60,985 nucleotides of DNA from Deltaproteobacteria bacterium (GTDB taxonomy: Bacteria; UBA10199; SPLOWO2-01-44-7), in the NCBI GenBank assembly GCA_030648035.1, contig JAUSII010000116.1:1-60985 (forward strand). The letters are read 5' to 3'. The notes under the pieces were generated by a model. That model had not been told where the DNA came from. It saw only the letters and a list, made by a program, of their open reading frames with translations, and did not search any database. Shown here piece after piece: positions 1,959-24,053 of the stretch (position 1 is the first letter of the stretch; every line of letters begins with the position of its first letter). A program made the translations under genes and the position numbers.

Positions 1959-1983
1959 CATGTTATCATCGTTCACATATTAC

Positions 1984-4301: not shown

Positions 4302-4330
4302 GCTTGACTGGTAACTTAGTTAAAAGTTAG

Positions 4331-5777: not shown

Positions 5778-6352
5778 TAGATATCCAAGCCCTGCAAATA
5801 CCAGCGGCCGGAACTTTTTTGAAAAAAGAGACGGACACTTTGCCAGTCCATATTGCCATTCTGCTCCGACCCGGACCAGGCAAGATCAATAAAGGGAAGT
5901 TTGCCGATCATTTTATCGACGGCATTGCCACTGTTGACAAAAATATTAACGCCGCGGATATCGTGACTTTTGGCTATTTTGGAGAGTTTGTCATACCAGA
6001 CAGCTCCAAAATTGCCGGTGATCGGTTTGCCCGTTCCATCCTGCCGCCCCCACCAGCGACTGTTGTTTTCTTTAAAGAGACGGCCCAATGCGGGGCAAGT
6101 TAGCCGGACATTATATTGGCCCAGATAGCGAAAAACAAAACCGGCCCCCGGATCACACATGTTTTCCCACTTTGTTCCATCCTGATCGAGAAGCCCCTGA
6201 ACAAATTGATTCACCAGCGGCTCCACCTGTTTGTAAAATTTTTTGTCTCTCCCTTCCGATTTGGAATATTTGATCTGCGGTGCCTCTTGCGCCTGCAAGT
6301 TAAAAGAGGCAAAAGAAAAAACGAGAAACAAAAAAAGCATTCCATATTTCAT
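5762..6352 (-). CDS. Secreted hypothetical protein
   Basis: Signal peptide MKYGMLFLFLVFSFASFNLQA; ATGA coupling to the upstream ATPase stop. Confidence 0.75.
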   Translation of the reverse strand: MKYGMLFLFLVFSFASFNLQAQEAPQIKYSKSEGRDKKFYKQVEPLVNQFVQGLLDQDGTKWENMCDPGAGFVFRYLGQYNVRLTCPALGRLFKENNSRWWGRQDGTGKPITGNFGAVWYDKLSKIAKSHDIRGVNIFVNSGNAVDKMIGKLPFIDLAWSGSEQNGNMDWQSVRLFFQKSSGRWYLQGLDIYHWTI

Positions 6353-8409
6353 GAGGCCCTCCACTGACGTCCCATGATGCGCTCAAATTCTTGTGGCGAA
6401 GTGATTCCCTTCATCACCAGTCGTCTGGCCGACTCACGAAGCAGGACAACGCCGGCCTCGGTCAGAGATCTCTCTGCGTCATCGCGTAATTTTATATCCT
6501 CGGCTCCACTGAACACATAGGCCAGCACTTCGTTTGTCGGCGGAACAACTTCATAAATGCCGATGCGCCCATTGTATCCGGTATTCTTGCACTGCCTGCA
6601 TTTTCCACTACTGAAAATTTCGGCGCGAGCCAGACTCTCCCGTGTCATCCCCAGAAGATCGGCAACAGTGGATGGATCGGATATTTTTTGTCGACAGTGC
6701 GGCTCTGTGCAGAGTCGTCGCACGAGTCTTTGCGCCACAATCCCCCTCAACACGTCGGCCAACATATGACCCGGAACTCCCATCTTCACCAAACGTTGCA
6801 CCGTGGAAAGAGCATCGTTGGTATGCAACGTGGAAAAAACAAGATGGCCTGTATCGGCCGCCTCCACTGCAATCTGCGCTGTTTCAGGATTCCGAATTTC
6901 ACCAAGCATGATGATGTTGGGATCGGAGCGCAAAAAAGAATGCAACGCCTTTTCATAAGTCAGCCCTCTCTCAATTTGCATCTGTTCTACACCACCCGGC
7001 AGTCTATATTCCACCGGATGTTCCGCGGTGAGGATATGTATGTCGGGCCGGGCCAATTCTGTTATCAAGGATGCAAGCAGAGAGGTCTTGCCGGAACCGG
7101 TGGGTCCGGTCACCAGAACCAGACCGTTGGGCTGTGAAGCAAAAGCTCTCAACATTCCCAGTTGCACTCCATCCATTCCCAAACCATCCAAGTCAAAAAT
7201 TTTCTGCGATCTTAAAAGTCTCATGGAAATGGCAGGGCCGTAAATGGTGGGACGGACCTCCGCGCGCACATCCATTGTTTCATCCCCGACCGTCCATTGA
7301 AAAACGCCACCCTGTGGAACCAGATGTATTTTGTCTGTCTCCATGTGGGCATCCGTTGCCAATTTTCTTACAACTCCTTGGGCATATGGAAGCAATCGGG
7401 CTTCATAATCTGCAAGATAAAGCGGTTCCAAAAGACCGTCTCTGCGAATGCGAACGGAGAGTCGTCCTTTTTGGGGGGCAATATGAATATCGCTGGTCCC
7501 TCTTCTATAAGCCTCATCCAAAATATTTTTAACAAGCTGAAGCACAAAAGGACTTTGCTCCGTAATCTGCTGGCTGGTATCGGCCCCAGCGGCGCGAACT
7601 GGAGCAGTACCAATATTTTCTATCGGCACAGGAGCGGCCGGCTTCGTCGCTCCGTCCTGACCATAAACGCGTTCGATCCCCACTTTGATTTCATGTTCAA
7701 AAGCAAAGACTGCTTGAATGGTATAACCGGTTGCAAAACGAATTTTGCCCAACAGTTCCAAATCCTCCGGCGAGGAAACAACAACATACAGAATACTTCC
7801 ACTCCGCATATAGGGTAGAACACCCAGCTCCAGCGCCTTTGCCTTTGGAAAGTTTGAAAAAATATCTCCCATATCTGCAGGCATGCCATCCGTTAAAACT
7901 TCCGCCACATTGATAATGGGAATTCCGGTATCGGTCGTATGCTCGCTCAAAATAATTCTCAAACGATGAAGTTTTTCCTCTTCTCTAGCGGCATTCCAAT
8001 GGCGCCCAATCACCGTCCAGAGAAAAGCGCCTCCCCTCGATGCGCTGATCCAACCCCGTATTTGAAGCGGAGTGGCCAAATTTTCGCTCAAGAGCTTTGC
8101 TACAATTTTCTGTTGTGCCGGGAGTGAAGAGGGAGGTTGTGTCACTGGCGCAATTTCACCGCCGGATGAAGGGCCGCCATTTCCCATTGCATATATTCGG
8201 TCGGGGATCGCCGCGAAGAGAGACGCGCGATCTGGTTTGGAAGGAACTCGGGATTGAAGCCAGGCAATAGCGGCAGGCTCCAGAACATCGGCCGGTGCCT
8301 CTGAATGGGGAACCGTCACGGGTATCACAAGGGAATCCAAAGCAGACGCAAGATTGGCCGTGGTGCAAAAAATTTCTGCAGAAAGGGCAACGTCACCGAT
8401 GACTCTCAT
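6349..8409 (-). CDS. GspE/PilB-family secretion/pilus ATPase with atypical N-terminal extension
   Basis: SDIHI.P, GPTGSGKT, EHPVEY, LRSDPNIIMLGEIR, TGHLVFSTLHTN, Zn-binding CxxC and GRIGIYEV; start at 8409 follows GGAGG. Confidence 0.9.
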   Translation of the reverse strand: MRVIGDVALSAEIFCTTANLASALDSLVIPVTVPHSEAPADVLEPAAIAWLQSRVPSKPDRASLFAAIPDRIYAMGNGGPSSGGEIAPVTQPPSSLPAQQKIVAKLLSENLATPLQIRGWISASRGGAFLWTVIGRHWNAAREEEKLHRLRIILSEHTTDTGIPIINVAEVLTDGMPADMGDIFSNFPKAKALELGVLPYMRSGSILYVVVSSPEDLELLGKIRFATGYTIQAVFAFEHEIKVGIERVYGQDGATKPAAPVPIENIGTAPVRAAGADTSQQITEQSPFVLQLVKNILDEAYRRGTSDIHIAPQKGRLSVRIRRDGLLEPLYLADYEARLLPYAQGVVRKLATDAHMETDKIHLVPQGGVFQWTVGDETMDVRAEVRPTIYGPAISMRLLRSQKIFDLDGLGMDGVQLGMLRAFASQPNGLVLVTGPTGSGKTSLLASLITELARPDIHILTAEHPVEYRLPGGVEQMQIERGLTYEKALHSFLRSDPNIIMLGEIRNPETAQIAVEAADTGHLVFSTLHTNDALSTVQRLVKMGVPGHMLADVLRGIVAQRLVRRLCTEPHCRQKISDPSTVADLLGMTRESLARAEIFSSGKCRQCKNTGYNGRIGIYEVVPPTNEVLAYVFSGAEDIKLRDDAERSLTEAGVVLLRESARRLVMKGITSPQEFERIMGRQWRAS

Positions 8410-8429
8410 AAAATCAACCTCCACCATCC

Positions 8430-8456
8430 TCTTCGGCTACGCTAAAAAAAAGTTGC
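8430..8456 (-). promoter_or_regulatory. Putative alternative-sigma promoter (GCAAC-N16-CGAAGA)
   Basis: GCAAC TTTTTTTTAGCGTAGC CGAAGA, 20 nt upstream of ATG 8409. Confidence 0.65.
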
Positions 8457-8470
8457 CTACAATAAATCCA

Positions 8471-8839
8471 CTACAATAAATCCGCCTTTAAGCGGGTGGC
8501 CACAGCACTTGTGATGCGGTAGCCGACAGAAATAATCATGTCGAGGTTGTAGTATTCGATACTGCGCTGGACATTGCGATTGCCTTCCTGTCGAACTGTT
8601 AAGAAATCCTTAATAGTTGCCTCAGGCATAAGCTCTGATTCTTCAAAAATATTCTTGATGTGCATGCTGATATTGGGGACTGTTGTCTGGAACAATTCGG
8701 CGATTTGCTGTTGGGGGAGCCAAACTGTTTCATTGTCGAGCCGCACATCGATTTTGATCTCTCCATCCTCGGTGGAATAGACAAGGAATTGGCCCTTGCC
8801 GCTGGTGGTTGTTAAGCTGTTTGTTTTCTTTTGGTTCAT
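8471..8839 (-). pseudogene. RhuM-family gene, C-terminally truncated
   Basis: ETVWLPQQQIAELFQ...YYNLDMIISVGYRITS matches the N-terminal third of the full paralogue at 39514-40554, then stops abruptly. Confidence 0.8.
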
Positions 8840-8871
8840 GGTTGTTCAACTTTCATTTTAATCTCCACGGC

Positions 8872-9669
8872 TCATATGCCCAAAGCATCATCGAGTTTGT
8901 GCATTAAAAGACTGGCAAGAACGATAAAATGTTTCGCTCGTTTATCATCGATACTTATATTGGAATGCGCCTTTGGATTTCTTATTCCGGTCATTGAGCC
9001 AGAAAAAATTTGCATAAATCCCACTTGGATATTTTTTCCGTTTTCAGTGGAGAGATCATCAAGACTAATCACGGGATTATTAACCGAAAAAGCACGATTC
9101 ATCAGAGTACTGCCATCAAGGTCATCACCAATTCTCTTTTTTACAATTTTTTTCACACAATCATTGATCTCCTTAAAAGCAGCCTCTACCGAATCAGCAT
9201 AATGTCCGCTTTCAAAGCGAGAGCGGGAAATTCCAATAATGCGTGGATGTACAAGATTCCAAAAATCATATGATTGAATAAGTTGGGATGCATTTGGAAG
9301 ATCCAGCTTCTTCTCTTCCAATCGCTGAATCAAACCTTCCAACATGCTTACCGTTTTGGGAATGCCTGCTGAAAAATTATGCTGATATTCATGATCAGAC
9401 ATTCCGACCGCATGTCCACCAGACCAAATATTGTGATATCGGTGTTCATGAAATTCTGGTGAGTTTTGTCCGAAAACTTCCCTGATTGTTTCTCTGACAT
9501 TCGATTTAACGTTATTTATTTTCTGGTCATCAAAACGAATTTGTTGGGAATTGAGTTCTTGCACTTCTTCAATTCGGCGTTTCAGCTTGGCAATACCGGT
9601 TTCAATTTCACCTACACTTAAAAATGTTTTTGGCTCAATCACTGGTTCCACAATTTTATGTCTTGCCAT
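8872..9669 (-). CDS. TIGR02391-family protein (RM-associated)
   Basis: LVHPRI...RFESGHYADSVEAAFK...DGSTLMNRAFS...GIRNPKAH. Confidence 0.8.
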   Translation of the reverse strand: MARHKIVEPVIEPKTFLSVGEIETGIAKLKRRIEEVQELNSQQIRFDDQKINNVKSNVRETIREVFGQNSPEFHEHRYHNIWSGGHAVGMSDHEYQHNFSAGIPKTVSMLEGLIQRLEEKKLDLPNASQLIQSYDFWNLVHPRIIGISRSRFESGHYADSVEAAFKEINDCVKKIVKKRIGDDLDGSTLMNRAFSVNNPVISLDDLSTENGKNIQVGFMQIFSGSMTGIRNPKAHSNISIDDKRAKHFIVLASLLMHKLDDALGI

Positions 9670-9678
9670 AGTGTTTCC

Positions 9679-10395
9679 TCATTCCTTCCACGCCTCTGCC
9701 CCAAGAGGCAGCTCGTTAAGTTCTGCACGGGCTTCGCGCCATGTTGGATAGTGATGAGCCAGTAGTTCCAAGAATCGCTCACTATGCGTGGGCTCAATAA
9801 GATGTAGCATTTCGTGAACAATAACATATTCAACAAGGTCCTTTGGCTTCTTCACTAACTCTGTGTTGAGTCGAATGTGTCTCATCTTTGGGTTGCAGCC
9901 ACCCCATTTGGTTTTCATGCGTTGCAAAAAGTACGTTTTGACTTTCACTCCGAGCTTTGGCTCCCATTTGGCGATCACAGATGGAACAAACTCATGAAGC
10001 AATTTTTTGTGCCATTCGTGCATGATCTGTGATTTTTTCACCTGATGGCTGGCAGGTCGTACACAAAGCGTGATCCGCTTGTGATCGATAATTACAGATG
10101 GTTTGGCATTTTTCTCAACCACGTTCAGCAAATGTCTGCGGCCCCACAAAAAGTGGCTTTCTCTTTCAATAAACTTCCTCGGGGATTCTCTTTCCTGACC
10201 AAGAAGTATCTCTTGTTGCCGCCGAATCCATTCAAGTTTGGAAATCGCATAGGCCCGTGCCACTTCAGTCCGGATGTTGTTGGGTACTGCGAGCGTGACT
10301 CGGCCATCAGGCGGATGGACCGACAAGTGAACATTCTTGATGGCCTTGCGGGTTACCTGAATGGCAATATCTCCAAGTTCGATGGTTTCAATCAT
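9679..10395 (-). CDS. M48/YgjP-family metallopeptidase commonly following hsdR
   Basis: [20 protein letters not shown] (HExxH), HSERF. Confidence 0.9.
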
Positions 10396-13300
10396 GTGTA
10401 CCTCGGCTGATTCTTGATAATTTCAAAAATGGCCCGCGTTGCCTTGCGATCCCTGTTCAAAAGTGGAAACAAGGCATTCAAAACCTGCTTTTCTCGAGTG
10501 TCGTCTCCCTTCCAGCCTGCCGGTGCCTTTTCTCTCATGGCAAGGTCGATCTGAAGTGCCAATGCAGACCGCTCATCATTGTCAGCAGGACATTGGAATG
10601 TATCGGTCTCAATATGTTGGAGATTGTTATACAGCACGATGGCGCTTGGATGCCCGTTGAGCCCAGACGGATGATCTGCTTTGTTATCCTTTTTTGCCAT
10701 GCGATGAACAAGCGCCTCTGCCTTCTTAAGCCATTCTTCATACGCCTCGGTGCTGTCCCTTTTTTGATCAATGAGATCGCCTAGCAACTTGGATATTTCT
10801 TCGTAAAATCTTGGGTCGGTAAGCTGATCCCGGATGATTGTCTTGCGGACGTTGTTGATAATTCCTTCAGCAATGGCGTTTTTTGAAAGTTTTCCTTTTT
10901 CGTTGAGTTTTCTTGCAATGGCATCGTGAATGCCGGTCTCAATAATCATTTCAACAAGTGTGTAATTATCCAGGGTGCCCAAGGGATCCACAGGGTCAGC
11001 CTGAATGTAAGAATTGAGGAGATGACGCATGTCTGCTTCGTAGGGCTTGATATCAAGCTCTTCGCCGGAATGTCGTTTGATGGCCGCTCGTATGTCGCTA
11101 AAGAAAATTACTTCATTGTTGAGAGTTGCAATTTCAGCAGAGGAGTAGCCCGCTTCTGACAAATCCTGGGAAATCTCCGCAAATGCGCGCACAAAACCGG
11201 CCACCGTTTTGTAAAAAGCAATCCTCAATGCTTCCGTGTTGTTTAATGCATTCGGATCATTAGCTTCTCCACAAAAATAATGCAGGTACTGCTCGACTTC
11301 ACGTGGATGCGGAACAGGGTCACAAAGATATTTCAGGCTCTCGCGGGCAACATCTAGTTTTTTTCGGCCTTCTTCGAGCCAGTTCTTGATTTTGACATTA
11401 TTGTCGCCTTTGCCATCTTCGTCGATATCCAGCTCGTCGGAGTTGTAAATCGCGATGACTTCCTGCACGTCACCTAATAATTCTTTATAGTCCACAATGT
11501 AACCGTAATCTTTATCCTCACCATCCAGCCGATTTGTCCGACAGATGGCCTGAAACAGGTTGTGATCATGCAGTTCATTATCGAGGTAAATATAGGTACA
11601 GGATGGCGCATCAAAACCAGTCAGGAGCTTACTGACAACCACCAATAATTTGCAATTTGCAGGTTCTTCGATAAATCGTCGTTTGATTTCATCTTCGTAT
11701 TGTTTCGTTGTCTGGTTATTTTCCAGCACAAATTGGGTGTAGGTATCAAACTTGTATCGCTCGTCACTATTGGCAGGCTCACGGGAAATCGCATTGTGAT
11801 TGGGTTCATACGACGTGACAATGCCGCAGTATTGGCCAAATGCCGTATTTTTGAACAGGCGGTAATAGTGACACGCATCGTAGATTGATGCCGCCACAAG
11901 GATGGCTGTGCCACGGTCATTGTTGAGACGCGGCTTTAGGGTGAAGTCTTCAATGATGTTGGCCACAATGCGTTGTTTGCGTTCTCCGGCACTCATTAGC
12001 TTTTCCAGAGTCGCCCATGTCTTGCGCACAATGGCTTTCTGAAAATTATTCAGATTTTTTGTTTTCTGTTCAAACCACGCATCAATGGCCGCCTGAGAAG
12101 TCAGGCGTTGCGGCACATTGCGGGCTTCGTATTTTAGGTCTAATATCACCTTGTCCGCAACCGCTTCATGGAATTTGTAGGTGTGTATGTAGGTACCAAA
12201 AATATTCCGTGTGGTCTGTCTGTCCTTGAGCAAGAGCGGTGTACCGGTGAAACCTATGAAAATGGAATTCTCTAGCCAGCGTTTCATTTGTTTGTTCATG
12301 TCACCACCCTGGGTACGATGACATTCATCAACGAAGACATAGAAGCGTCCGAAAAGAGAGGGTGGTGGGCCTTGCAAATCTGCCGGATCGAATTTGTGAA
12401 CAAGGGCACACAGCAAGCGGGGCATGGTGGCGCCAATTTTGGAAACAAATTCAGCCCGTGTCGTGATGCGCGGTGACGGCGAATTGGTGCCAATCACACC
12501 GGCATTCTTCATCACGCCCTCGATTTGTTTGTCGAGTTCGTCGCGATCAGTGACCACGAGCACGCGCGCCTCGGGATCAAACTCCATCAACCATTTGGCG
12601 ATGAGCACCATCAAAATGCTCTTGCCGCTTCCTTGGGTGTGCCAGATCACGCCACCTTCTTTAAGACGAATTCTTTCTTGAGCGGCCTTGAAACCAAAAT
12701 ATTGATGGGGGCGGGGCACTTTCTTTTGGCCCCCATCATAAATAATGCAGTTCCTGAGAAGATCGAGCAGACGTTCTTTGTTACACATCTGAGCAATGGG
12801 TTTATCTAAATACTCACCTCTCCCAATGGCATTCTTGCCAAGAGTACCGGTCTCATCTTTCCATTCCACAAAAAATTGTTCCGGCGTGCCCGTGGTGCCA
12901 TAGCGCAGACCTTGGGAGTCACTGCCAGCAAAAACAAATTGCACTGTTGAGAAAAAACCCTTGTTGAAGATTTCTTCCTGATTGGTGATGAGCTGACGAA
13001 CACCATCGCCAATTTCTACGGAGCTACGTTTGAGTTCGATCACACCGATAGCAATGCCATTGAGATACAGTACCAAATCGGGCCTGCGCTCATACCCACC
13101 CTTGAGCGTCACTTCTTCGGCCACACCAAAATCGTTTTTGTCTGGATTGTCCCAATCAATCAAATGAACGGTTTCGTGGGCTTGACCTGCAGCAATTTGC
13201 ACCGGCACGCCATAGCGCAATAATTGATAAGTGCGAAGATTGGCCTGATAAAGCTCAACGCCCGTACTGTCGGCAGCGGTTTCCAGCTTTTGCAGGGCTA

Positions 13301-13496
13301 CCGAAATATGGGTATCGGAATATTCGCGTTTTTTCAGGTTAGCTTTAAGGAGTTCTGTTTCGATATTCCGGTTTTTTTCACGCTTCTGCCAATCGCCAAG
13401 GTAGTCATAGCCGAGATAATCCGGATGAGTTTTATCCGTAAACAGTGAGATAACACGATTTTGAGTCAAACGCTCTGAGCGTGGTTTAGTGGACAT
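10392..13496 (-). CDS. hsdR: Type I restriction endonuclease subunit R
   Basis: [15 protein letters not shown] nuclease, [35 protein letters not shown]. Confidence 0.97.
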
Positions 13497-14775
13497 GATT
13501 AACCTCCGGCGTGACAAGGCGTGTTTTACCCGTGAGCAGTTCCTGCATCATGGCCTGCTTGAGGGCGCGGGTCTTCTCCCGCCGCTGTTCCAACACTACC
13601 AGCTCCGCGTCCATCTCCGTCAGCACCTCGGCGATGGCGGTTTGTTCGGGGAGTGCGGGCAATCGAAGCGGTGACTTGAGAAGCGCAACCTTGGACAAGT
13701 TGTAGCGGGTCGAGCCTTGAGCGAGTGACTTCATCAACTCGCGGCCTTCTTTACTCCTGAGGTAGTAAGCCAAGAACAATTCATCGGCCTCAGTGCCATC
13801 GTGAAACCGAAAGCCAAAGCAAAAGCTGTTCAAGTAAACGTCTCGAACTTCATCAAGCAGCACCGAACACATGGCGACTTCTTCGGGGGTCTCTGATGAG
13901 CCATTGAAGAACAGGTCGCCCTTTTTTGCGCGATTCTGAGACTCCGTCGGCGAGAGCTGCACATGCTCGAACGTTCCGCAATCAATCACGACGTTCGACA
14001 TGACGTTCATGAAAGTGATGTAACGCGCAGAACCTTCGCCAAAGTCGGCTTTGGTTTTGCCGGTCAACCCGCCATAAGTTGACCCCACATCCCCCAGCCG
14101 CTTCACCTCCCACTCGCCGTGGAAGCCGGGGAGGCGGGTTTGGCCCGTGAGGAGTTGCTGCATGGCGGCCTGTTTGAGGTCGCGCTTCTTGGTGATGAGC
14201 TTGTCGAGGCTTTCGAGAAGGACATCGACATCAGAGAGGGCGGTGGCGATGGCGTGTTGTTCGGGAAGGGATGGAACGATAATCTGAAATTTTAATAAGT
14301 CTCGCGTGTAAATAGCAGCAACACTTGTAGTTCCAGTCGCGAGACCACGTAGGCGAGAAATCGCACCCTCTGTATTCATCGAGTAGTTTGCATATTCATT
14401 TGAGCAAACTTTCTTTTGATCGAACTCTAACCGCATGAGGTTGGAGTTGTAGTAAGCGCGTGGAAGCTCAGCTCGCCAAATGGCAACTTTACCGACCAAG
14501 TCCAATGTGTTTCGCGTATTAAACAAAACATCGCCATAAACGAGCCGGTGTGTTGGTTCTGGCATCACACCTGGGGTGATGAACTGCACTTTCGACAGGT
14601 CGAAATTTCCACGAGCAAGATTTCCCATCTTCATTAGTGGCAGTTCACCCTCCACGTCTTGATTCGCGTAATTTCCTCCAAGTCGTCCTTTTAACAGGAC
14701 CGTACCGAGTGGTTTTAGATCCCAATCCTCCGGAATAACACCCACCTCGGTATGCTTATAACCGGGCTTCACCAT
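13486..14775 (-). CDS. hsdS: Type I RM specificity subunit S
   Basis: EVGVIPEDW, two TRDs with repeated EQ.AIA..L...LKQA.MQ.LLTG.TRL helices. Confidence 0.96.
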
Positions 14776-17264
14776 ACCGCTCCCATTCTCTTCAAATGCC
14801 CCTCAACAAGGGTGGAGAATTCGGCGACTGATTCTTCCAGTTTGGGCAGAGGTGTTTCATAGCGTTCCGCGAGCTGGCGAATTCTTCCGGTGAGCGTTTG
14901 TGAAACACGATCGAGTTCGCCTTGTACAGCAGTAGCAATTGTGGCCAACCATTTGTCATCCACGACAAGTGTTTTGATTTCGCTCTCGGTGAGTTTTGGG
15001 TATTTCTCGGCAATTTTATTTTCTAAATCTTCCTGTGCCGCTTTAAGACTGGTTTTAATGGTGGCTTGCCGCTCCAAAATCACAGCATAGTCTTGAAGTG
15101 CCTGCCGCTCATCATCGTAATCAGGATCTTTACCGATTTCCTTGAGTCGAGCCTTCACTCCCTTGACGGTGATCTTTTGTTTGTCGCCTTCACCTTCAAT
15201 CACTTCCGCAAGCAGTCCATCCTCGCCACTTTGTTCCTCGCGCTTTTCGTCAAGCTCTTGTTCAATGGTGGCAAGTTCGGATTCAAAGCCTGATATGACA
15301 TCGCGCTCGCCGCTGAAGTAGCGGGCAATCAGAATTTCAGCAGGAACAAGATCCGATTTGAAACGGCGATTGCCGCGCTTGAAATCTTCTTTTTCTGGCC
15401 AGACAAGTTTATTATCTTTGTTTTTGATCTGACAAATTTCTCGAGGCGGGGCGCCTTGCTGCCAGCCAACTGCAGAAATCAGGTAAGCGTCGTCCTGCAT
15501 GGTTTCTGCCCAATAATCCATCATGTGTTGATAGATATCGTAGGCATCCAGCAGAGGTGCAGACTTGAAAGTGGCGAGGAGACTTTCGGCAATGTTTTCA
15601 ATAAGCGCCTTGGGATGACCGTTTTGATCAAAGCCATTCAATTGCAGCGCATTGGTTTTTTTCCAACCGGCAAAAAGCAAGGTGGCCGATTTGTGGAATG
15701 CAGTAAATTCGGGGTGACTAAAAATGGCAGGCTTCACTTCAGTGATGGGAAGCGGCAGCTGATAATAACCGGAGCGGAGTACCTTGAACAGTGCTATGCG
15801 CAAGCCGGGCATGATCTTCCAGTATTTAGCCAGCGCATCAATATCGTATTCAGGGATGCCGCCACGCAAGTGCCCGTCTATATCCTGCAAATCTTCAGGT
15901 TCTGTACTGTCGATGTAACGCGGGAGATTGAGGTTGTAGTCATTCTTTGGATTCGCAATCTCTTCAACAGGTACCATCCGAGCATAACGCGGATTACTTT
16001 CATCCTGCCGTCTAAATATGTCCACGATCTTGTGGATGTCCTGTTCACGCAGTCGATTTTTTGGACCATCCTTGCGAAACCCCTTTGAAGCATCAATCAT
16101 GAAAATACCTTTGCGTGCCGTGGCATTTTCTTTGTCGAGCACAAGAATGCAGGCAGGAATACCGGTTCCAAAAAAAAGATTGGCCGGCAAACCAATGATG
16201 CCCTTGAGAATGCCAGAGCGCACAAGTTGCTGGCGGATGCTGGCCTCGGCATTCCCTCTAAAAAGCACACCATGTGGAAGAATGCAGGCCGCTTTACCGG
16301 TGCTCTTCATGGAGCGAATGATGTGCAAGAGGTAAGCGTAATCGCCTTTTTTTTTGGGCGGCACTCCCCATGTAAAGCGCTGGTAGTCATCGCCTTTGCC
16401 GCTTTCACCAAGCGTGAGGCCTGTGGACCAAGTTTTGTCTGAAAAGGGTGGATTCGCGACAACATAATCATAGGTGCGGAGTTGCACGCCATCGAGAAAT
16501 TTGGGCTTCACCAATGTGCCTTCACCACCGGATTGAATGTTCGCGGTGGGAAAATCATGCAGGATCATGTTCATTCGGGCAAGACCAGCGGTCGTGCTGT
16601 CCTTCTCTTGCCCTTCAAGTGTAATTCGCTTTCCTGATTCAGCTGCGACTTTTAACAACAATGAACCAGAACCACAGGTCGGGTCGTAGGCGGTTGTACC
16701 CGCAACTGTGTTTGCGGGTGATACGCCCAGCACCTTGGCAATGATGCGACTGACTTCCGAAGGAGTATAAAACTGTCCCTTGCTTTTACCGCTCTGCGTG
16801 GCGAAGTGCCGCATCAAATATTCGTAAGCATCACCAAGAATGTCATCATTTTCAGCACGGTTTTGAGAGAAATCTAGTGCAGGGTTTTCAAAGATACTGA
16901 TAAGGTTTCCAATTCTTTCAACCTTTGCTGGACCATCACCAAGTTTGTTTGGGTCATCAAAATCCGGAAAATCACTGCGAGCAAGATTGGTATTGGAGTC
17001 AACCAGAGGCTTGATTACCTGAGTATTAATGAGCTCGCCGATATTCGATTTGCCTTTGAGTGCAGCCATGTCTTTGAAAGTCGCACCCTTTGGTATAACA
17101 ATCGGTGGCTCAAAGCCGTCATAGTCTGCATATTTGTCGGAAACATATTTGATGAACAACATGAACAAAACGTAATCTTTGTATTGGCTAGCATCCATGC
17201 CGCCCCGCAATTCATCACAGGATGCCCAAATGGAGGAGTAGAGATCTGATTTCTTAAGTGCCAT
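14769..17264 (-). CDS. hsdM: Type I RM methyltransferase subunit M (long form)
   Basis: GQFYTP, DPTCGSG, NPPF, PHGVLFRG. Confidence 0.97.
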   Translation of the reverse strand: MALKKSDLYSSIWASCDELRGGMDASQYKDYVLFMLFIKYVSDKYADYDGFEPPIVIPKGATFKDMAALKGKSNIGELINTQVIKPLVDSNTNLARSDFPDFDDPNKLGDGPAKVERIGNLISIFENPALDFSQNRAENDDILGDAYEYLMRHFATQSGKSKGQFYTPSEVSRIIAKVLGVSPANTVAGTTAYDPTCGSGSLLLKVAAESGKRITLEGQEKDSTTAGLARMNMILHDFPTANIQSGGEGTLVKPKFLDGVQLRTYDYVVANPPFSDKTWSTGLTLGESGKGDDYQRFTWGVPPKKKGDYAYLLHIIRSMKSTGKAACILPHGVLFRGNAEASIRQQLVRSGILKGIIGLPANLFFGTGIPACILVLDKENATARKGIFMIDASKGFRKDGPKNRLREQDIHKIVDIFRRQDESNPRYARMVPVEEIANPKNDYNLNLPRYIDSTEPEDLQDIDGHLRGGIPEYDIDALAKYWKIMPGLRIALFKVLRSGYYQLPLPITEVKPAIFSHPEFTAFHKSATLLFAGWKKTNALQLNGFDQNGHPKALIENIAESLLATFKSAPLLDAYDIYQHMMDYWAETMQDDAYLISAVGWQQGAPPREICQIKNKDNKLVWPEKEDFKRGNRRFKSDLVPAEILIARYFSGERDVISGFESELATIEQELDEKREEQSGEDGLLAEVIEGEGDKQKITVKGVKARLKEIGKDPDYDDERQALQDYAVILERQATIKTSLKAAQEDLENKIAEKYPKLTESEIKTLVVDDKWLATIATAVQGELDRVSQTLTGRIRQLAERYETPLPKLEESVAEFSTLVEGHLKRMGAVW

Positions 17265-17412
17265 GAGTTAATAGCCTTTCTTTTTTCCAACTGTAGCTTT
17301 CTTTTTTTTGTTGCGACTCACTGTCAGACCGCACCCAATCATCCACCTCGGACAATTTAAAACGCAGCAGGCGACCTGCTTTGTGTGCTGGGAAATTTTT
17401 GGTTTCGATCCA
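17254..17412 (-). pseudogene. 5'-truncated excisionase-like HTH gene
   Basis: WIETKNFPAHKAGRLLRFKLSEVDDWVR is the C-terminal half of HTH_17-type proteins; the N-terminal half is missing. Confidence 0.7.
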
Positions 17413-17433
17413 AATTGACGCCATCCATTCCAC

Positions 17434-17525
<92 letters not shown>

Positions 17526-17570
17526 AAAAATCCAAAATCTCTCTTAGAATGGACTTCTCGGCAAAGCAAT

Positions 17571-17602
17571 AAACAAAAAGCCCCTCCCAATATGGGAAGG
17601 GC
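17571..17602 (-). terminator. Intrinsic terminator after the ice-binding gene
   Basis: GCCCTTCCCA-TAT-TGGGAGGGGC followed by TTTTTGTTT. Confidence 0.7.
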
Positions 17603-17627
17603 CAATCTTTTAAGATAAATGCACGTC

Positions 17628-18380
17628 TTACGGTCTTGTAACCGTACTATGATCCAGAGTGACTGCAGTCTGTGCCAGCGCTCTGCCGTGGATCACGGCG
17701 CCGGTGTTCAAAACAATCGCTGTCTTGGACAATATGGTTCCCTTGAAATCAGCTGTTGTTCCAAGAGTGGCCTGACCGGCGACCTGCCAGAAAACGTTCT
17801 TGGCCTGTGCTCCGCCTCTCAAATGCACCTTTCTGGCGCTGGCCTGGGTAAGGTTTCCCGCGATCTGAAAAATCCAGACATCGTTTGCGCTACCCGAAAG
17901 TGTGACATCGGTGGACATTAAAACATTGCTACTCCACTTGTAGAGACCCGGGAAGAGGGTCAGTCCGCCAATCTGTCCGGCACCCAGTTCCGTAAAATCG
18001 GGTAATGTCCGACCGGCCGCATCGGCGTAGGCAATTTGCATGTCACTGATGGCCGCAGTTAGTAATGTGGCGTTATTCACCCTGCATGGAAGAGGACCTG
18101 CCGCATCGACGGAATATATTGTCCCTGTCACTTCATCACACGTTACAAGAGTAGCTGTGCCGCTGATGGGACTGGATCCAATGTCTCCAGTGATAACAGA
18201 CAAAGGAACGTCCGTGACTCCTGATTTTGTCAGAACCGCAAACGCACCCGCTGTTCTAAGGGCTACCGGTGCCGGGCCTGCCACTTTAACGATCGAGTAG
18301 CTCCAGGACTTGTTGATAAACAAATTATCTGCAGTCACCAGCCCGACGAGCATCAACACAACATAGGTGATCGGCTTCAT
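17628..18380 (-). CDS. Secreted ice-binding family protein (DUF3494)
   Basis: Signal peptide; FAVL.KSGVT, ITGDIGSSP, TL.PGLYKW, VWIFQIAG, GAQAKNVFWQVAG, GRALAQTAVTLD. Confidence 0.93.
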   Translation of the reverse strand: MKPITYVVLMLVGLVTADNLFINKSWSYSIVKVAGPAPVALRTAGAFAVLTKSGVTDVPLSVITGDIGSSPISGTATLVTCDEVTGTIYSVDAAGPLPCRVNNATLLTAAISDMQIAYADAAGRTLPDFTELGAGQIGGLTLFPGLYKWSSNVLMSTDVTLSGSANDVWIFQIAGNLTQASARKVHLRGGAQAKNVFWQVAGQATLGTTADFKGTILSKTAIVLNTGAVIHGRALAQTAVTLDHSTVTRP

Positions 18381-18517
18381 ATAAATCTCCTTCTTTGATG
18401 ATGGTTAGACTTCTTTCCTGCCCCTTTGATTCATGCGACAGAATTATAAGAGAAACAGAGGGAGGACAATCGGGGCAAACAGGATTATGGACTGGGGGAT
18501 TTCACTACGGCAAACGA

Positions 18518-19750
18518 CTAACGAACACGCCTGCCAGCGCGACCTGCGGGGCGAACCTTGATTTCAACGTAGGGCTCCACACCCGGCACCGTGCAACGGG
18601 GGAGCGGTTTATCCAGTGCTTTTTCAATCGATTGGATCATCGGCTTGTCCATCCAGGTGGCAATGGTCGACACAAGCCCCAGAGCTCCGGCGCGTGCGGT
18701 TCTTCCGGCGCGATGGATATATTCTTCCACCGCTTCGGGAATGTTGAAGTTCACAATATGCTGAATGCCCGGCACATCGATCCCGCGTGAGGCGATATCG
18801 GTCGCCACCAGAATGCGATGTTCCCCCTCACGGAAACCTTGCAGGGCATCGGTACGCTCTTTTTGCGACCGGTCGGAATGAATTTTGTCGACCGGGTGTC
18901 CCTCTTTTTCAAGCACCTGGCAAATCCAGTCGGCATCGCGTTTCATGCGTGTGAAGACCAGCGTTGTTCCCAATTCCTGATTAAGAAGGCCCAGCAGACA
19001 TTTATTTTTGTCTTTTTGTTCCACCAGATAAAGACGGTGGGTGATCCCCTCCGCCGCCTTTCCCTTGGGAAGAATGTCGATGCGAATCGGTTCCTGCAAA
19101 AATTGTCGTGCGAGTTTTTCAATCGCAAAAGGCATGGTGGCGGAGAACATCATCGTGTGTCTCTCCCGCGGCACCGCTTTGAGAATGCCCAGCATCTGCG
19201 GCAAAAACCCGAGATCGAGCATGTGATCGGCCTCATCCAAAACCAGTTCTTCGATATGGTCGAGCTTCACATTCCCCCGCTCCATATGATCGACCAGACG
19301 ACCCGGTGTGGCGACAATAATGTCGGGATTGTTTTGCAAATCGCGGATCTGGGGCCCCATGCTGACGCCGCCAATCACGCAAACCGTGTGAAGATTGTGA
19401 TGCTTGCCGAAAAGATCGAGAAACGCCTTTGTCTGCAGGGCGATTTCGCGGGTGGGGCAAAGAATGAGCCCCCGCAAACCCTTGCCATGCAAAAGTCTCT
19501 CGGCAATGGGCAGAACAAACGCGGCGGTTTTGCCGGAGCCGGTCTGCGCCAGACCGATGATGTCTTTCCCTTCCAGCGCCGGAGGAATCACCTCCAGCTG
19601 GATGGGTGTGGGGTGTTCAAAACCGACGCGGGTGATCGACTGAAGCACCGGCTCCGAGAGTTTGAGCGAGGCAAACGTCTGCTCGGTCGTCTCCACCGGA
19701 TGCTGTCCGAGCAAAACAATTTCTGGATCTTTTGGATCTTTTTCCAACAT
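18518..19750 (-). CDS. DEAD-box RNA helicase (RhlE-like)
   Basis: Q motif PTPIQ, AQTGSGKT, PTREIA, DEAD, SAT, HRAGRTAR. Confidence 0.96.
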   Translation of the reverse strand: MLEKDPKDPEIVLLGQHPVETTEQTFASLKLSEPVLQSITRVGFEHPTPIQLEVIPPALEGKDIIGLAQTGSGKTAAFVLPIAERLLHGKGLRGLILCPTREIALQTKAFLDLFGKHHNLHTVCVIGGVSMGPQIRDLQNNPDIIVATPGRLVDHMERGNVKLDHIEELVLDEADHMLDLGFLPQMLGILKAVPRERHTMMFSATMPFAIEKLARQFLQEPIRIDILPKGKAAEGITHRLYLVEQKDKNKCLLGLLNQELGTTLVFTRMKRDADWICQVLEKEGHPVDKIHSDRSQKERTDALQGFREGEHRILVATDIASRGIDVPGIQHIVNFNIPEAVEEYIHRAGRTARAGALGLVSTIATWMDKPMIQSIEKALDKPLPRCTVPGVEPYVEIKVRPAGRAGRRVR

Positions 19751-19830
19751 GGCGGGTCTTTTAGCCGAACCGATCCGGATCCACAAGACGAATTTGCATT
19801 ATAAGTGAATCGCATTTATGATGCGCTCCG

Positions 19831-20580
19831 ATGAGTGAAACACTCCTGATTGCTTTTGGGTTGTCGGTGCTGTTGATGGCCCTCAATTTTTTTGCGCCAC
19901 GATTGCGCCGCATCCCCTTCATCCCGGAACATGCCACCACCTCTTTCATCGGAGGTTTCTCCGTCGCCTTTGTCTTTCTGGAACTTCTTCCCGGTCTGGC
20001 AGAACATGGCAAAACGATTGGCACACTCCTCTCCGAAACGGGCACCATCACCCCGATCAAAGATCTTCTTATCTATATCGTTGGACTCGCCGGCTTTCTC
20101 ACTTTTTTTGGTCTTGAAAAACTGGCCCAGCGTAAAAAAGAGATGCGGGTCGCCCCCAAAAAAATGGACTTTCTGCTCCACCTTTTGGCTATGGGAGTGG
20201 CCAACACCCTCATGACCTATACCCTTCCGATCAACGTGGAGGCCGAGGGATTTTCGTTTGCTCTTTTGTTCACCCTCGTGATGGGACTCCATTTCATCGT
20301 CGTCGATCGGACCATGGAGCGGCATTTTCCAAACCAGTTTCATTCCTTTGGCCGTTTTTTTCTGATGGCCAGTATTTTGCTGGGATGGATACTCGCTTAT
20401 ATCACTGAACCCGACGATGTTTATATTGTGGCCATGCTGACCGCTTTTATCGGCGGCTCGGTTTTGTTGAACGCCTTCAAGGAAGAGATCTCTCTCTCAC
20501 ACAAAACCAGTTTTCACTGGTTTCTGGCCGGCAGTGTTTTTGGCACACTGCTTCTGGTACTGATTACAAAATCCATTTGA
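19831..20580 (+). CDS. Multi-pass membrane protein
   Basis: About 7-8 hydrophobic segments; GGFSVAFVFLELLP and AFIGGSVLLNAFKEE suggest a ZIP-like fold. Confidence 0.75.
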   Translation: MSETLLIAFGLSVLLMALNFFAPRLRRIPFIPEHATTSFIGGFSVAFVFLELLPGLAEHGKTIGTLLSETGTITPIKDLLIYIVGLAGFLTFFGLEKLAQRKKEMRVAPKKMDFLLHLLAMGVANTLMTYTLPINVEAEGFSFALLFTLVMGLHFIVVDRTMERHFPNQFHSFGRFFLMASILLGWILAYITEPDDVYIVAMLTAFIGGSVLLNAFKEEISLSHKTSFHWFLAGSVFGTLLLVLITKSI

Positions 20581-20610
20581 TTTTTCTGTGGGGAACACCT
20601 AAAGAGCCCC

Positions 20611-22308
20611 ATGGCTAATACAAATGAAGAACCGGTAAAAATCATTTTTTCGATGGGCAAGGTCAGCCGGATTTATCCCCCCAAAAAACAGGTCTTGAAA
20701 GATATTTCGCTCGGGTTTTATTACGGCGCCAAGATTGGCGTGCTCGGGTTGAACGGCTCCGGCAAAAGTTCTCTTTTGAAAATCATCGCCGGTGTCGACA
20801 CCGAATATCAGGGGACTTTGAGCTGGGCCAAGGGTTACACCGTCGGCTTTCTGGAACAGGAGCCTGCACTCGACCCGAATAAAACCGTCAAAGAGATTGT
20901 TCAAGAGGGGGCCGAAGAGACGGTCAACCTTCTCAAGGAATTTGAAGAGATCAACAACGCCTTCGCCAATCCGATGAGCGACGACGAGATGAACAAACTT
21001 CTCGACCGCCAGGCCAAGGTGCAGGAAAAACTCGATCAGACCAACGCATGGGAACTCGACTCCAAACTGGAACTCGCGATGGATGCCCTGCGTTGCCCGC
21101 CGCCTGATGCAAAAATTTCAGAAATTTCCGGTGGAGAAAAAAGGCGCGTGGCGCTTTGCCGTTTGCTTCTCAAAGAGCCTGATGTGCTTTTGCTCGATGA
21201 ACCGACCAATCATCTCGACGCCGAATCGGTCTGGTGGCTGGAGCGTCATCTTCAGCAATACAAGGGAACCGTCATCGCCGTCACCCACGACCGCTATTTT
21301 CTGGACAATGTGGCCCAATGGATTCTGGAACTCGACCGCGGCCACGGCATTCCATGGAAAGGCAATTACTCCTCGTGGCTTCAGCAAAAAGAGGAGCGCC
21401 TCGCGCACGAAGAGAAAAGCGATCAGAAACGTCTCAAAACATTGGAGCGCGAACTGGAATGGATTCGCCAATCGCCTTCGGCCCGCAGAGCCAAGAGCAA
21501 AGCCCGCATCACCAACTATGAAAATCTGTTGAGTCAGGAGCGCGAAAAACTCGACGAAGAGATGGAAATTTATATTCCACCCGGTCCCAGATTGGGCGCC
21601 AGTGTCATCGAGGCGCAAAATGTTTCTAAGGCCTTTGGCGACAATCTTCTTTTTGAAAATTTGAATTTTTCACTTCCGCAGGGCGGCATCGTCGGCGTCA
21701 TCGGACCCAACGGCGCCGGCAAAACCACACTCTTCAAGATGATCATGGGGATGGAGAAACCCGACGGCGGCACTTTTAAAGTGGGAGAGACGGTGAAGCT
21801 GGGCTACGTCGACCAGAATCGTTTTGCTCCGGATGACAAACGGAATGTGTGGGAATGTATTTCCGGCGGCGCAGAGACGATCAAACTGGGCCATCGTGAA
21901 ATCAATTCGCGCGCGTATGTCGCCCGCTTTAATTTTTCCGGCACTGATCAGCAAAAACCGATCGCCGTTTTGTCGGGAGGCGAGAGAAACCGCGTTCATC
22001 TCTCGATGACACTCAAAGACCCGGGCAACGTGTTGCTTCTTGATGAACCGACCAACGATCTCGACATCAACACCTTGCGCGCGCTCGAAGTGGCGCTGGA
22101 AAATTTTGGCGGATGTGCCGTCATCATCAGCCACGATCGCTGGTTTCTGGATCGCATCGCCACGCACATTCTGGCGTTTGAAGGAGATTCGCAGGTCGTC
22201 TGGTTCGACGGCAACTTCGCCGAATACGAGGCCGACCGCCACAAACGCCTCGGCGCCGAAGCCGATCAGGTGCATCGCATCCACTACAAAAAATTGAAGA
22301 GAAACTAG
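20611..22308 (+). CDS. ettA: ABC-F energy-dependent translational throttle EttA
   Basis: GAKIGVLGLNGSGKS, two ABC domains, ELEWIRQSP linker, YIPPGPRLG. Confidence 0.95.
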   Translation: MANTNEEPVKIIFSMGKVSRIYPPKKQVLKDISLGFYYGAKIGVLGLNGSGKSSLLKIIAGVDTEYQGTLSWAKGYTVGFLEQEPALDPNKTVKEIVQEGAEETVNLLKEFEEINNAFANPMSDDEMNKLLDRQAKVQEKLDQTNAWELDSKLELAMDALRCPPPDAKISEISGGEKRRVALCRLLLKEPDVLLLDEPTNHLDAESVWWLERHLQQYKGTVIAVTHDRYFLDNVAQWILELDRGHGIPWKGNYSSWLQQKEERLAHEEKSDQKRLKTLERELEWIRQSPSARRAKSKARITNYENLLSQEREKLDEEMEIYIPPGPRLGASVIEAQNVSKAFGDNLLFENLNFSLPQGGIVGVIGPNGAGKTTLFKMIMGMEKPDGGTFKVGETVKLGYVDQNRFAPDDKRNVWECISGGAETIKLGHREINSRAYVARFNFSGTDQQKPIAVLSGGERNRVHLSMTLKDPGNVLLLDEPTNDLDINTLRALEVALENFGGCAVIISHDRWFLDRIATHILAFEGDSQVVWFDGNFAEYEADRHKRLGAEADQVHRIHYKKLKRN

Positions 22309-22332
22309 GCATGTTTGTGTTATAAAGCGTGC

Positions 22333-22749
22333 ATGCCCAACTTTCCGGTCTCCCCGGCCAAACAACTGGCGTTGTCGGAATCGATGAAGCAATATAATGT
22401 TCACGAGGCCGACCTCGAGGAGAATTTTATTCGCGGTTCCGGCTCCGGTGGACAAAAAATCAACAAAACCTCGTCTTGCGTTCAGCTTCTGCACCTTCCC
22501 AGCGGCATCGAGGTGCGATGCCAGGCCACGCGCTCGCAGGCGATGAACCGTTTTTTCGCGCGCAGACTTCTGGTCGAAAAAATTGCCAACATTGTGGAGG
22601 GCAAAAAGAGCGCCGAGCAACAGCGCTTTGAAAAAATCCGCAGACAAAAACGCCGCCGCTCCAAACGGGCCAAAGAAAAAATGTTGGGAGAAAAAAAACA
22701 TGTCTCCAAAAAAATTCAGCGCAGGCGTGTTTCAGAAAATGATTTTTAA
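22333..22749 (+). CDS. RF-1 domain peptidyl-tRNA hydrolase (ArfB/C12orf65-like rescue factor)
   Basis: GSGSGGQKINKT GGQ motif, RSQ..NR, long basic C-terminal tail. Confidence 0.88.
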   Translation: MPNFPVSPAKQLALSESMKQYNVHEADLEENFIRGSGSGGQKINKTSSCVQLLHLPSGIEVRCQATRSQAMNRFFARRLLVEKIANIVEGKKSAEQQRFEKIRRQKRRRSKRAKEKMLGEKKHVSKKIQRRRVSENDF

Positions 22750-24053
22750 GAAGTGACAGACCCCGTCTTTGCCCGAACACTCTCCGCCCCCTGTGTATCC
22801 CCAAGTTCTGTAAAAATCGCCAAGGCCTCTCCCAAAAGGATGGCGCAGGTTAATTGGATATTTGCAAATGTCGCGGCAGAAAAAGTTTGCGTCGACAAGT
22901 GGCGTTCCCGATACAAGACAGCGGCAAGTAATTTCGTTTCAGCCTGCATGCGCCTCACTTCTTGCGAGAAATAATGCATTTCCAAAGAGTCGATTTTTGC
23001 CGCCATCTCTTCAGCCTTTTGAAAATAACCACAGGCCAACTTCAAAAAACTGGGCGGAAGATGGGGAAGATCGGACACCAGACGATAAAGAACTCTCCCC
23101 GCTTCATAATTTAAAATCGCAACATCTTGTGCGTCCTTTTTGCGTTCCCGAATGGTCATCCATTCCATAAATATGGAGAAGGCATTCAACATGACAAGAA
23201 GAGTCCCCTTTTCTGCGGCGGCTTTGGACAATTGTTGCATCTGTATAAAATCCGATTTGAAAATCAATTCTGAAGCACGGACATATTGTCTGCGCTCCAT
23301 ATAGGCCCTGGCAAGCATCCGATACATCATGACAATATTTTGCAGATGTTGCGACGGATTGAGAAATCCAAGCACTTCAGTCATATTTTTTTCAGCCTCA
23401 TCGTAATTATCAAGCAGAACTTCCACATGGGCAAGCGAAGTCAAAAAACTAAGCAGTTTGACTGGTTGCACTCCCTCACGCGCTTCACGAATGACATTCA
23501 TGGCCAGCGTTCTGGCAAATTGGAGAGACTCCAAAGCCCTCTCCCGATTTTCCCCAAAAGACTCCAGATATTTTGCCCGAAAAATCAAAAAATGAAGGGC
23601 CGCGTCTTTCTCATCTTTATGCAATGCAATGGCTATCAACTTCCGGCAGATTTCCGGAATATATTCTCCCGCCACTTGTTTAAGATTGGCGTTTGGATCA
23701 TTCGATGCAATTTCGCTGTAGCGTTCGAATGCCTCCACACCTTTTTTTAAAACAGCTTCGTCTTCCGATGCCGCTGCATCTTTGATCATCTTTTCAAACG
23801 AAGGAATGATAGCGGCCGCCAATGCAGAGGCGTTAACCGCAGGAGAGAAAGAAACAGGAGAGGACAAAAAAAGAGGGGCATATACCGGCTGTGTGCGGGG
23901 CTGCTGAAGCTCGCGCAAACGGCGGAGGTCATCAATCATCCAAGCTTCAGGAATAGTGTCATCGGGAGCCACCATTAAAAGGGAATCAAGAACACCCGTG
24001 CAAATGGAGGCAAAAGGAACAACCGATAAAGCAACATCATTAAAAAGGGCCAT
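22746..24053 (-). CDS. Helical/TPR-like hypothetical protein
   Basis: Long ORF with amphipathic helical repeats; start set at MALFNDVALS, downstream of the promoter motif. Confidence 0.7.
   Translation of the reverse strand: MALFNDVALSVVPFASICTGVLDSLLMVAPDDTIPEAWMIDDLRRLRELQQPRTQPVYAPLFLSSPVSFSPAVNASALAAAIIPSFEKMIKDAAASEDEAVLKKGVEAFERYSEIASNDPNANLKQVAGEYIPEICRKLIAIALHKDEKDAALHFLIFRAKYLESFGENRERALESLQFARTLAMNVIREAREGVQPVKLLSFLTSLAHVEVLLDNYDEAEKNMTEVLGFLNPSQHLQNIVMMYRMLARAYMERRQYVRASELIFKSDFIQMQQLSKAAAEKGTLLVMLNAFSIFMEWMTIRERKKDAQDVAILNYEAGRVLYRLVSDLPHLPPSFLKLACGYFQKAEEMAAKIDSLEMHYFSQEVRRMQAETKLLAAVLYRERHLSTQTFSAATFANIQLTCAILLGEALAIFTELGDTQGAESVRAKTGSVTS

Follow-up and report, generated by a model that had tools for sequence, protein, structure and literature searches.

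An uncharged N-terminal leader on unrelated proteins behind sigma-28-class promoters, and its possible link to a needle-less type III system

Described systems and the present locus

In Pseudomonas syringae all known type III effectors are regulated by HrpL, and some members of the HrpL regulon are not translocated, as reported in PMC3136466. Myxococcus xanthus has a needle-less type III secretion system (T3SS), T3SS*, which according to PMC12075869 (2025) lacks secretin, needle and translocon, is recruited together with the Kil Tad pilus and is required for prey lysis; its effectors, and their way out of the cell, are described there as unidentified. In Bdellovibrio bacteriovorus, where FliA (sigma-28) acts as a master regulator of the attack phase, the FliA promoter TTAAG-N16-CCGATA is reported in 92 of 140 attack-phase promoters (PMC3627812). 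Here we analyse a stretch of 60,985 nucleotides (nt), hereafter the window, from an uncultured groundwater bacterium of the Deltaproteobacteria, in which two minus-strand genes encode a PilB-like ATPase (P0001) and a helical-repeat protein (P0002) with matching N-termini. An N-terminal-specific, selected, uncharged leader is found on many unrelated orphan proteins of this genome. The genome also encodes the core of a non-flagellar T3SS and, linked to it, a FliA-like sigma factor, and both are conserved throughout the class. We propose, with a probability of about one half, that the leader is an export or recruitment signal for a needle-less T3SS*.

The arrangement is reminiscent of the HrpL regulon with its hrp-box promoters, with which it shares one alternative sigma factor tied to a T3SS, a short promoter motif, scattered, unrelated and fast-evolving genes and, as predicted here, substrates marked by N-terminal composition in a regulon of which a part is not translocated. 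It differs in that the sigma factor is of the FliA/WhiG type and not of the extracytoplasmic function type, in that many mRNAs look leaderless, and in that the leader excludes lysine and arginine (K/R) over 30-60 amino acids (aa) and has a weak sequence pattern; the T3SS is known from sequence alone, with no needle match and no dedicated secretin found. The likeness to the Myxococcus T3SS* lies in the export apparatus and sorting platform, in the synteny with Archangium over R-T-U-TPR-V-FHA-TPR, and in the presence of a Tad locus. Here, however, a set of candidate substrates can be named together with a sigma-28-type regulon, the parts resembling FliG and FliM look more flagellar, and predation by the organism is suggested only as plausible. 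As in Bdellovibrio, a FliA-type promoter would govern a large non-flagellar gene set, but Bdellovibrio is flagellated, and the account drawn on here describes neither an N-terminal leader class nor a link to a T3SS.

Sigma-28 in the absence of flagella is known from Chlamydia. In the terminal reassortment of type III effectors, effectors with unrelated bodies have one promoter and N-terminal secretion module in common, and the effectors of Salmonella pathogenicity island 2 share an N-terminal translocation domain, WEK(I/M)xxFF. The modules shared in these cases are of some 50-140 aa and recognisably homologous, whereas the strict similarity described here covers about 15 aa. Literature searches found no paper naming T3SS* effectors, and nothing relevant on a non-flagellar T3SS with sigma-28. 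Type III effectors are already known to combine a sigma regulon with an N-terminal signal that is not of the Sec type, and to call the leader a candidate undescribed targeting signal, as the original prediction did, was an overstatement; what is new is the needle-less T3SS* setting, the FliA-type sigma factor, the predicted leaderless mRNAs and the rules of leader length and charge. The promoter motif and the uncharged leader together form a rule, readable from sequence, that names several dozen candidate substrates and a candidate signal. A FliA-type sigma factor apparently runs a largely leaderless regulon of some 100 promoters in a genome where no flagellar filament or rod genes were found, and a binding protein diversified by a diversity-generating retroelement (DGR) is tied to this sigma-28-class regulon.

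The shared leader and its promoters

The genome (G000; its contigs are denoted C) is 96% complete in 135 contigs, and gene calls and start sites come from a simple in-house caller. The two focal genes and their promoters are:

8409 to 6349, minus strand: P0001, PilB-like ATPase, 686 aa, starting MRVIGDVALSAEIF...LDSL
24053 to 22746, minus strand: P0002, helical-repeat protein, 435 aa, starting MALFNDVALSVVPF...LDSL
8430..8456, minus strand: sigma-28-class promoter of the P0001 gene, -35 GCAACTTT (8456-8449), 11-nt spacer, -10 GCCGAAGA (8437-8430)
24064..24090, minus strand: sigma-28-class promoter of the P0002 gene, -35 GCAACTTT (24090-24083), 11-nt spacer, -10 GCCGAAGA (24071-24064)

Both N-termini fit M-x3-[GN]-DVALS-x3-F...LDSL, with DVALS at residues 6-10 and F at residue 14 in each, and LDSL at residues 24-27 in P0001 and 22-25 in P0002. 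The coordinates, sequences and motif positions given in the original prediction are thereby confirmed, both genes proving to lie on the minus strand, and the starts chosen there fit the promoter geometry. P0001 has a 5' untranslated region (UTR) led by a Shine-Dalgarno sequence, GGAGG standing 8 nt upstream of ATG 8409. The ATG of P0002 at 24053 is 10 nt past the -10 box, and its mRNA is therefore predicted to be leaderless or nearly so. Alternative upstream starts lie inside or upstream of the promoter, and those of ATG 8409 are no more than about 11 nt from the -10 box.

The match between the two N-termini exceeds chance. Their first 30 residues give a Smith-Waterman score of 36, equalled by 11 of 5000 shuffles, and among the N-termini of 2015 genes the top match of P0001 is P0002 (36, tied with a protein on C124 that has the same motif). 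The best N-terminal matches of P0002 are three proteins beginning MVTFNDIAL, MPGFNDIAL and MMNDIAL. Beyond their N-termini P0001, P0002 and the DGR target are unrelated by BLASTP, and all three lack a basic n-region. The leader of P0001 is uncharged, with Arg2 as the only K/R in residues 2-31. Low-complexity sequence extends as far as residue 100 or so, and the domains further on are MshEN (183-254) and the T2SSE ATPase (286-676); the gene stands outside any pilus operon. P0002 has no Pfam match, and searches of 40 relatives, 5.8 billion proteins and 1.84 billion representatives returned no homologue (self-match only). Its structural model has a mean predicted local distance difference test score (pLDDT) of 65.7, with residues 1-77 below 50 and residues 78-435 modelled as an all-alpha repeat, which resembles TPR proteins at the level of fold class only (template modelling score 0.27-0.36).

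The promoter family is sharply defined by its spacing. AACTTTT followed by CGA at exactly 19 nt is found at 123 sites, compared with 13 and 14 at one base less and one base more, and 39 at three control offsets together. The -10 box of the 123 correctly spaced sites reads CGATAA in 75, CGAAGA in 11 and CGATAC in 11. The full form is GCAACTTT-N11-GCCGATAA, with GCCGAAGAG in a sub-class. Taking the Escherichia coli FliA (sigma-28) consensus for comparison, the geometry and the -10 box are those of sigma-28, and the -35 box matches the TAAAGTTT-like consensus only in part (xxAAxTTT). A stricter filter retained 100 promoter sites, 87 of them with a downstream open reading frame (ORF) of at least 100 aa, and these 87 are taken as the regulon set. 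In 46 of the 87 the start codon is 12-18 nt from CGA, which is too near the -10 box for a ribosome-binding site, so that leaderless mRNAs are predicted for about half of the regulon. Two promoters on C59, at 74361(-) and 74375(+), stand back to back some 15 nt apart, and both of the divergent genes have K/R-free leaders.

As had been anticipated, the leader recurs on further proteins, its carriers share one promoter family, and they are unrelated to each other. The 87 regulon proteins fall into 78 BLAST clusters, and a Pfam analysis of 85 of them found no family in more than three proteins, with FGE-sulfatase in three. The strict motif is present in six proteins and the generic uncharged form in at least 34. 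The generic leader is 30-60 residues long, free of K/R, rich in Ala, Ser, Thr, Pro, Gly and Leu, and moderately hydrophobic. Of the 87 regulon proteins, 34 contain no K/R in residues 2-31; outside the regulon this holds for 71 of 1938 genes (Mann-Whitney p = 4e-18; the background count predates refinement of the starts). The first K/R lies past residue 40 in 26 of 87 regulon proteins, compared with 68 of 2015 genes. The property is confined to the N-terminus: among the 82 regulon proteins of at least 140 aa, 34 are K/R-free at residues 2-31, two at 41-70 and two at 101-130, and the content of K+R beyond residue 40 is 12.0%, against 12.3% in the genome.

The composition is also distinctive, with A, M, T, P, S and V enriched and K, R, H, Y and F depleted. 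Asp and Glu make up 0-6% at leader positions 5-20 (background 7-11%), and Leu is found at position 10 in 12 of 34 leaders where 4.3 are expected. When the 45-residue N-termini of K/R-poor proteins were compared with each other, 17 pairs scored at least 45, against one in shuffles, and the remainders of these proteins are mostly unrelated. A promoter with one mismatch stands upstream of 16 of 77 'background' genes with a late first K/R, so the class exceeds 34; with near-miss promoters and operon members included, we estimate 50-70 carriers. An exploratory motif found post hoc, N[AG]-hydrophobic-L, occurs in 5 of 87 regulon proteins and 8 of 1938 others. A second N-terminal module (..V.PGF...ALF.GA.AL..A..) is seen in C11:3205-4725(-), C132:52003-52425(-) and C132:53309-54091(+), the C132 pair being short proteins.

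Features of Sec, lipoprotein and Tat signals are absent: the leaders contain no K/R (except Arg2 of P0001), and their maximum hydropathy is below 2.0 in all 34. It is very unlikely that they act as N-out membrane anchors, or as unusual uncleaved signals used by Sec or YidC. A 19-residue window of P0002 does reach 1.88, and 7 of the 34 leaders reach 1.6, but the mean maximum is 1.29, Pro, Gly and Ser break up the hydrophobic runs, and a basic n-region is lacking.

Type III signals are uncleaved, located at the extreme N-terminus, disordered and rich in Ser, Thr and Pro, with few early acidic residues; the classical type III secretion (T3S) signal is some 20-25 aa long and has no sequence consensus. 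The leaders share the absence of Sec and Tat features, the disorder (as modelled for P0002 residues 1-77), the richness in Ser, Thr and Pro and the scarcity of acidic residues at the start. They depart from the classical signal in length and in having a sequence pattern, with K/R-free runs longer than 40 in the 26 proteins noted above, a position bias and motif families.

Uncharged N-termini need not be an address. They could be disordered linkers, tags for stability or degradation, or a side effect of whatever constrains the 5' ends of a regulon's leaderless mRNAs, in keeping with the 46 genes that look leaderless and with the low pLDDT of P0002 residues 1-77; secretion of the leader proteins is, moreover, a prediction. 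Several results make this explanation unlikely. The K/R-free fraction is alike for leaderless genes (20 of 46) and genes with a short UTR (12 of 27), the position pattern typified by Leu10 is left unexplained, and the A-rich codons of Lys would be expected to favour unstructured 5' ends, the opposite of K/R exclusion. The varied synonymous codons of the strict motif, described next, imply selection at the protein level.

Within this genome-wide leader class, the sub-type with the DVALS/'FNDIAL' N-terminus is the most conserved. The pattern [GN]D[VI]AL[SE] occurs three times in 4.78 million six-frame residues, always at residues 5-10 behind a GCCGAAGAG promoter. The broader [FLIVM][NSGD]D[IVML]AL occurs 17 times in the whole six-frame translation. 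In six cases it stands among the first 10 residues of an ORF, and these ORFs encode 390-852 aa. The six motif carriers are:

P0001; P0002; C15:199(+); C36:8634(-); C124:25861(-); C130:3555(-)

When the six are aligned, M1, D6, A8 and L9 are invariant and similarity is gone after about 15 residues. The DNA around the motif has diverged, and the conserved residues are encoded by differing synonymous codons, from which it follows that selection acts on the peptide. A promoter lies upstream of five of the six (three exact, two with one mismatch in the T-run), and the motif is tied to the rare -10 variant CGAAGA (GCCGAAGAG), with 3 of 8 against 0 of 79 (Fisher p = 5e-4).

The six may share the motif through a reused module of promoter and first codons, as in terminal reassortment; alternatively, the motif may mark a separately recognised sub-class of leaders. 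Taken to its limit, the former would make the strict motif a matter of shared ancestry, a module resembling a promoter plus first exon, copied within the genus and with no function beyond that of the generic leader. This is quite unlikely as a full account, although several observations fit it: of 41 genomes searched, the N-terminal motif is in this one only; it goes with the rare -10 GCCGAAGAG and its similarity fades after some 15 residues; and the second module family (at C11 4725, C132 52425 and 53309) offers a parallel. It sits less well with the divergence of the surrounding DNA while D6, A8 and L9 stay invariant in six proteins with varied codons, or with the retention of FNDQAL, displaced by 11 residues, in a P0001 orthologue of another genome, G003. 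Shared ancestry is compatible with the best explanation, and is no replacement for it.

The type III system and the reading of the leader

A secretion system co-occurring with the leader was expected from the original prediction, and a non-flagellar T3SS core was found. The only FHIPEP protein of the genome is SctV (782 bits), and it is accompanied by SctU (320 bits), SctJ, SctL/FliH, SctN, FliM-like and FliN-like proteins and SctR/T. Two FHA/YscD-like (SctD-like) proteins and a weak FliG-like protein are also present. The FliM-like (75 bits), FliN-like and weak FliG-like proteins of the system are encoded at C24:3340-4642 and C103:64-1026, and the system may be an intermediate form, part flagellar basal body and part injectisome. 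Flagellin and the rod and hook families have no match in the genome, with controls working; for the needle family PF09392 the control was silent too, which makes the lack of a match uninformative. The sheath families PF04984 and PF05943 of extracellular contractile injection systems and type VI secretion systems gave 0 matches in the genome. Its three secretins lie in an Msh-type pilus locus, beside a GspE-type ATPase of a type II secretion system (T2SS) and in a Tad locus, and no secretin dedicated to the type III system was found among them. SctV is closest to Archangium (52-53% identical), followed by Chlamydiales (48-49%), and the gene order R-T-U-TPR-V-FHA-TPR is common to the Archangium loci; on the basis of this synteny, the locus resembles the Myxococcus "needle-less T3SS*". 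The genome combines a Tad locus with a T3SS* of the Myxococcus type, which makes the predatory lifestyle suggested earlier plausible.

The sole FliA/WhiG-like sigma factor of the genome, C103:1541-2335(-), is encoded within the type III locus, 3 kb from sctJ; the remaining two sigma-70-type matches are RpoD and RpoH. The sctV operon contains, after sctV (C11:3205-4725(-)), an orphan gene for a protein of 506 aa that carries a leader of the same kind. A search of 40 relatives returned no homologue of this gene, so that its product could be identified neither as a gatekeeper nor as a translocator.

SctV and the sigma factor are found in all 41 genomes of the class, and in at least 16 they lie 8-18 kb apart on one contig. 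The promoter pattern is present in 40 of the 41; it occurs 78 times in this genome, 21-53 times in members of its family and 0-45 times in the others (0-1 per strand for the reversed pattern). In G002, from another genus, the first 30 of 48 sites yielded 27 ORFs, of which 8 are K/R-free and 13 have at most one K/R. The sole true orthologue of P0001, that of G003, has about 48 K/R-free N-terminal residues and the shifted FNDQAL mentioned above. A PilZ-domain protein stands behind the promoter in three genomes from two families (C118:~37025-37345(+) in this genome, L211 in G002 and L195 in G025), and a PP2C phosphatase does so in this genome (C11:12642-13508(-)) and in G002; both proteins appear to belong to a conserved core of the regulon.

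On the basis of the sole FliA/WhiG-like sigma factor in the T3SS locus, and of the leader on the orphan in the sctV operon, we hypothesise that the leader is a signal for T3SS*. The roughly 100 sigma-28-class promoters would be read by the single FliA/WhiG-like sigma factor, so that the whole set of leader proteins would be made together when this factor is active. The export gate or the sorting platform of T3SS* would then take up or recruit these proteins by means of the leader, possibly in concert with the Tad pilus, whose genes lie elsewhere in the genome.

A number of observations weigh against this reading. Export, transcription starts and the pairing of the sigma factor with the promoters are all deduced here from sequence. 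A look-up of sequencing runs for window positions 1-10000 returned one DNA run, perhaps the source itself, and no RNA run. The best family of the sigma factor, TIGR02479 FliA_WhiG, gives 131.4 bits against a cut-off of 189.6. The regulon is mixed, with Sec- or lipoprotein-like signals in 7 of 87 proteins and ordinary N-termini in about half, and those proteins of the T3SS locus that would be expected as early substrates do not have K/R-free N-termini. Classical T3S signals are not known to exclude basic residues over 30-60 aa. In G025, from another family, there is a trend only (2 of 14 against 10 of 312, p = 0.09), and the pattern TTYAAYGAYRTNGCNYTN gave 12 matches in 40 relatives, none of them N-terminal (reversed control 4). 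The strict DVALS motif, for which a search of related genomes had been suggested, is thus at no N-terminus in the 40 relatives, and taken alone it does not amount to a conserved address. A small acidic chaperone-like neighbour is found for 0 of 30 leader genes, compared with 77 of 1985 others, and a hexameric ATPase of the PilB/GspE type such as P0001 is unlikely to be secreted cargo. The idea of a common export tag therefore stands as regards a shared leader on co-regulated proteins, while its export function is predicted, with the PilB-like ATPase as an odd substrate.

The last two of these points, the lack of adjoining chaperone genes and the ATPase that makes better sense as a recruited than as a secreted protein, would also fit a leader directed at something other than T3SS*: the Tad, T2SS or Msh route, a further export path, or docking at a pole or contact site without export. 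Tad, T2SS and Msh-type loci are all present, and classical T3S signals are shorter than the leader and less sequence-like. We consider such targeting somewhat unlikely, because at least 16 genomes show physical linkage between the sigma factor and T3SS*, the orphan in the sctV operon bears the leader, and the leader proteins have no Sec or Tat signals, which substrates of T2SS and Tad normally require.

If the leader is indeed a signal for T3SS*, a more specific proposal may be entertained, which is possible though doubtful. The K/R-free leader with an N-x-hydrophobic-A-L core would be the address tag of a T3SS*/Tad contact machine, conserved across the class as a principle, and would constitute a distinct, consensus-bearing class of signal that gives a first substrate repertoire. 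That repertoire would then include the DGR-diversified binding protein and the PilB-like ATPase.

The DGR target and other features of the window

The third leader protein of the window is the DGR target, whose features are:

968..1873, minus strand: DGR variable protein, 301 aa, FGE-sulfatase fold, K/R-free leader, variable repeat (VR) at 978-1102
1984..2010, minus strand: sigma-28-class promoter of the DGR target, GCAACTTT-N11-GACGATAA
1..929, minus strand: DGR avd (555-929) and 5' part of the reverse transcriptase (RT) gene (1-669), cut by the contig end

The target is genuine, and the earlier suggestion that a DGR diversifies one of the carriers is borne out. Profile matches at the locus are to RVT_1, bAvd and FGE-sulfatase, the last being the usual fold of DGR targets. 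The template repeat (TR) is absent from window positions 1-2100 and is found on another contig, at C78:9478-9602; over 125 nt, TR and VR share 86% identity and differ at 17 positions, 16 of which are TR adenines. The DGR is thus split by the assembly, with TR and the 3' part of RT at the end of C78 and VR, avd and the 5' part of RT at the start of the window. The N-terminus of the target, starting at 1873, matches the motif more loosely than those of P0001 and P0002. Its start codon is 116 nt past the first base of the -10 core (CGA), giving a long mRNA leader. Proteins with the FGE-sulfatase fold stand behind sigma-28-type promoters at three places, C42:8330-9433, window 968-1873 and C118:1930-3108; the VR check covered the window copy.

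Two further features of the window are:

5762..6364, minus strand: 200-aa protein of no known family, overlapping the stop of the ATPase gene
51635..51661, minus strand: fourth promoter of the family in the window, GCAACTTT-N11-GCCGATAC, preceding gene 49917-51623

The gene for the 200-aa protein is probably co-transcribed with that of P0001. The product of gene 49917-51623 carries a lipoprotein-type signal, which shows that the regulon is not confined to leader-bearing proteins. Besides this promoter at 51635-51661, others of the family precede proteins with Sec or lipoprotein signals on C1, C38 and C133 (two), and 4 of the 8 promoters with the CGAAGA variant are among those that do so; the regulon thus supplies the general export route as well.

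The span between the focal genes (8471-22308) holds unrelated genes. Among them is a type I restriction-modification operon, with HsdR at 10392-13517, HsdS at 13486-14775 and HsdM at 14769-17264. A YgjP-like peptidase, a Ymh-family protein and a RhuM fragment are also encoded within 8471-17264, and a tRNA gene adjoins at 17438-17525. A protein with an ice-binding-like domain is encoded at 17628-18380(-) (228 bits). Elsewhere in the window, a cobalamin riboswitch is found at 53132-53262(+), with 83.5 bits.

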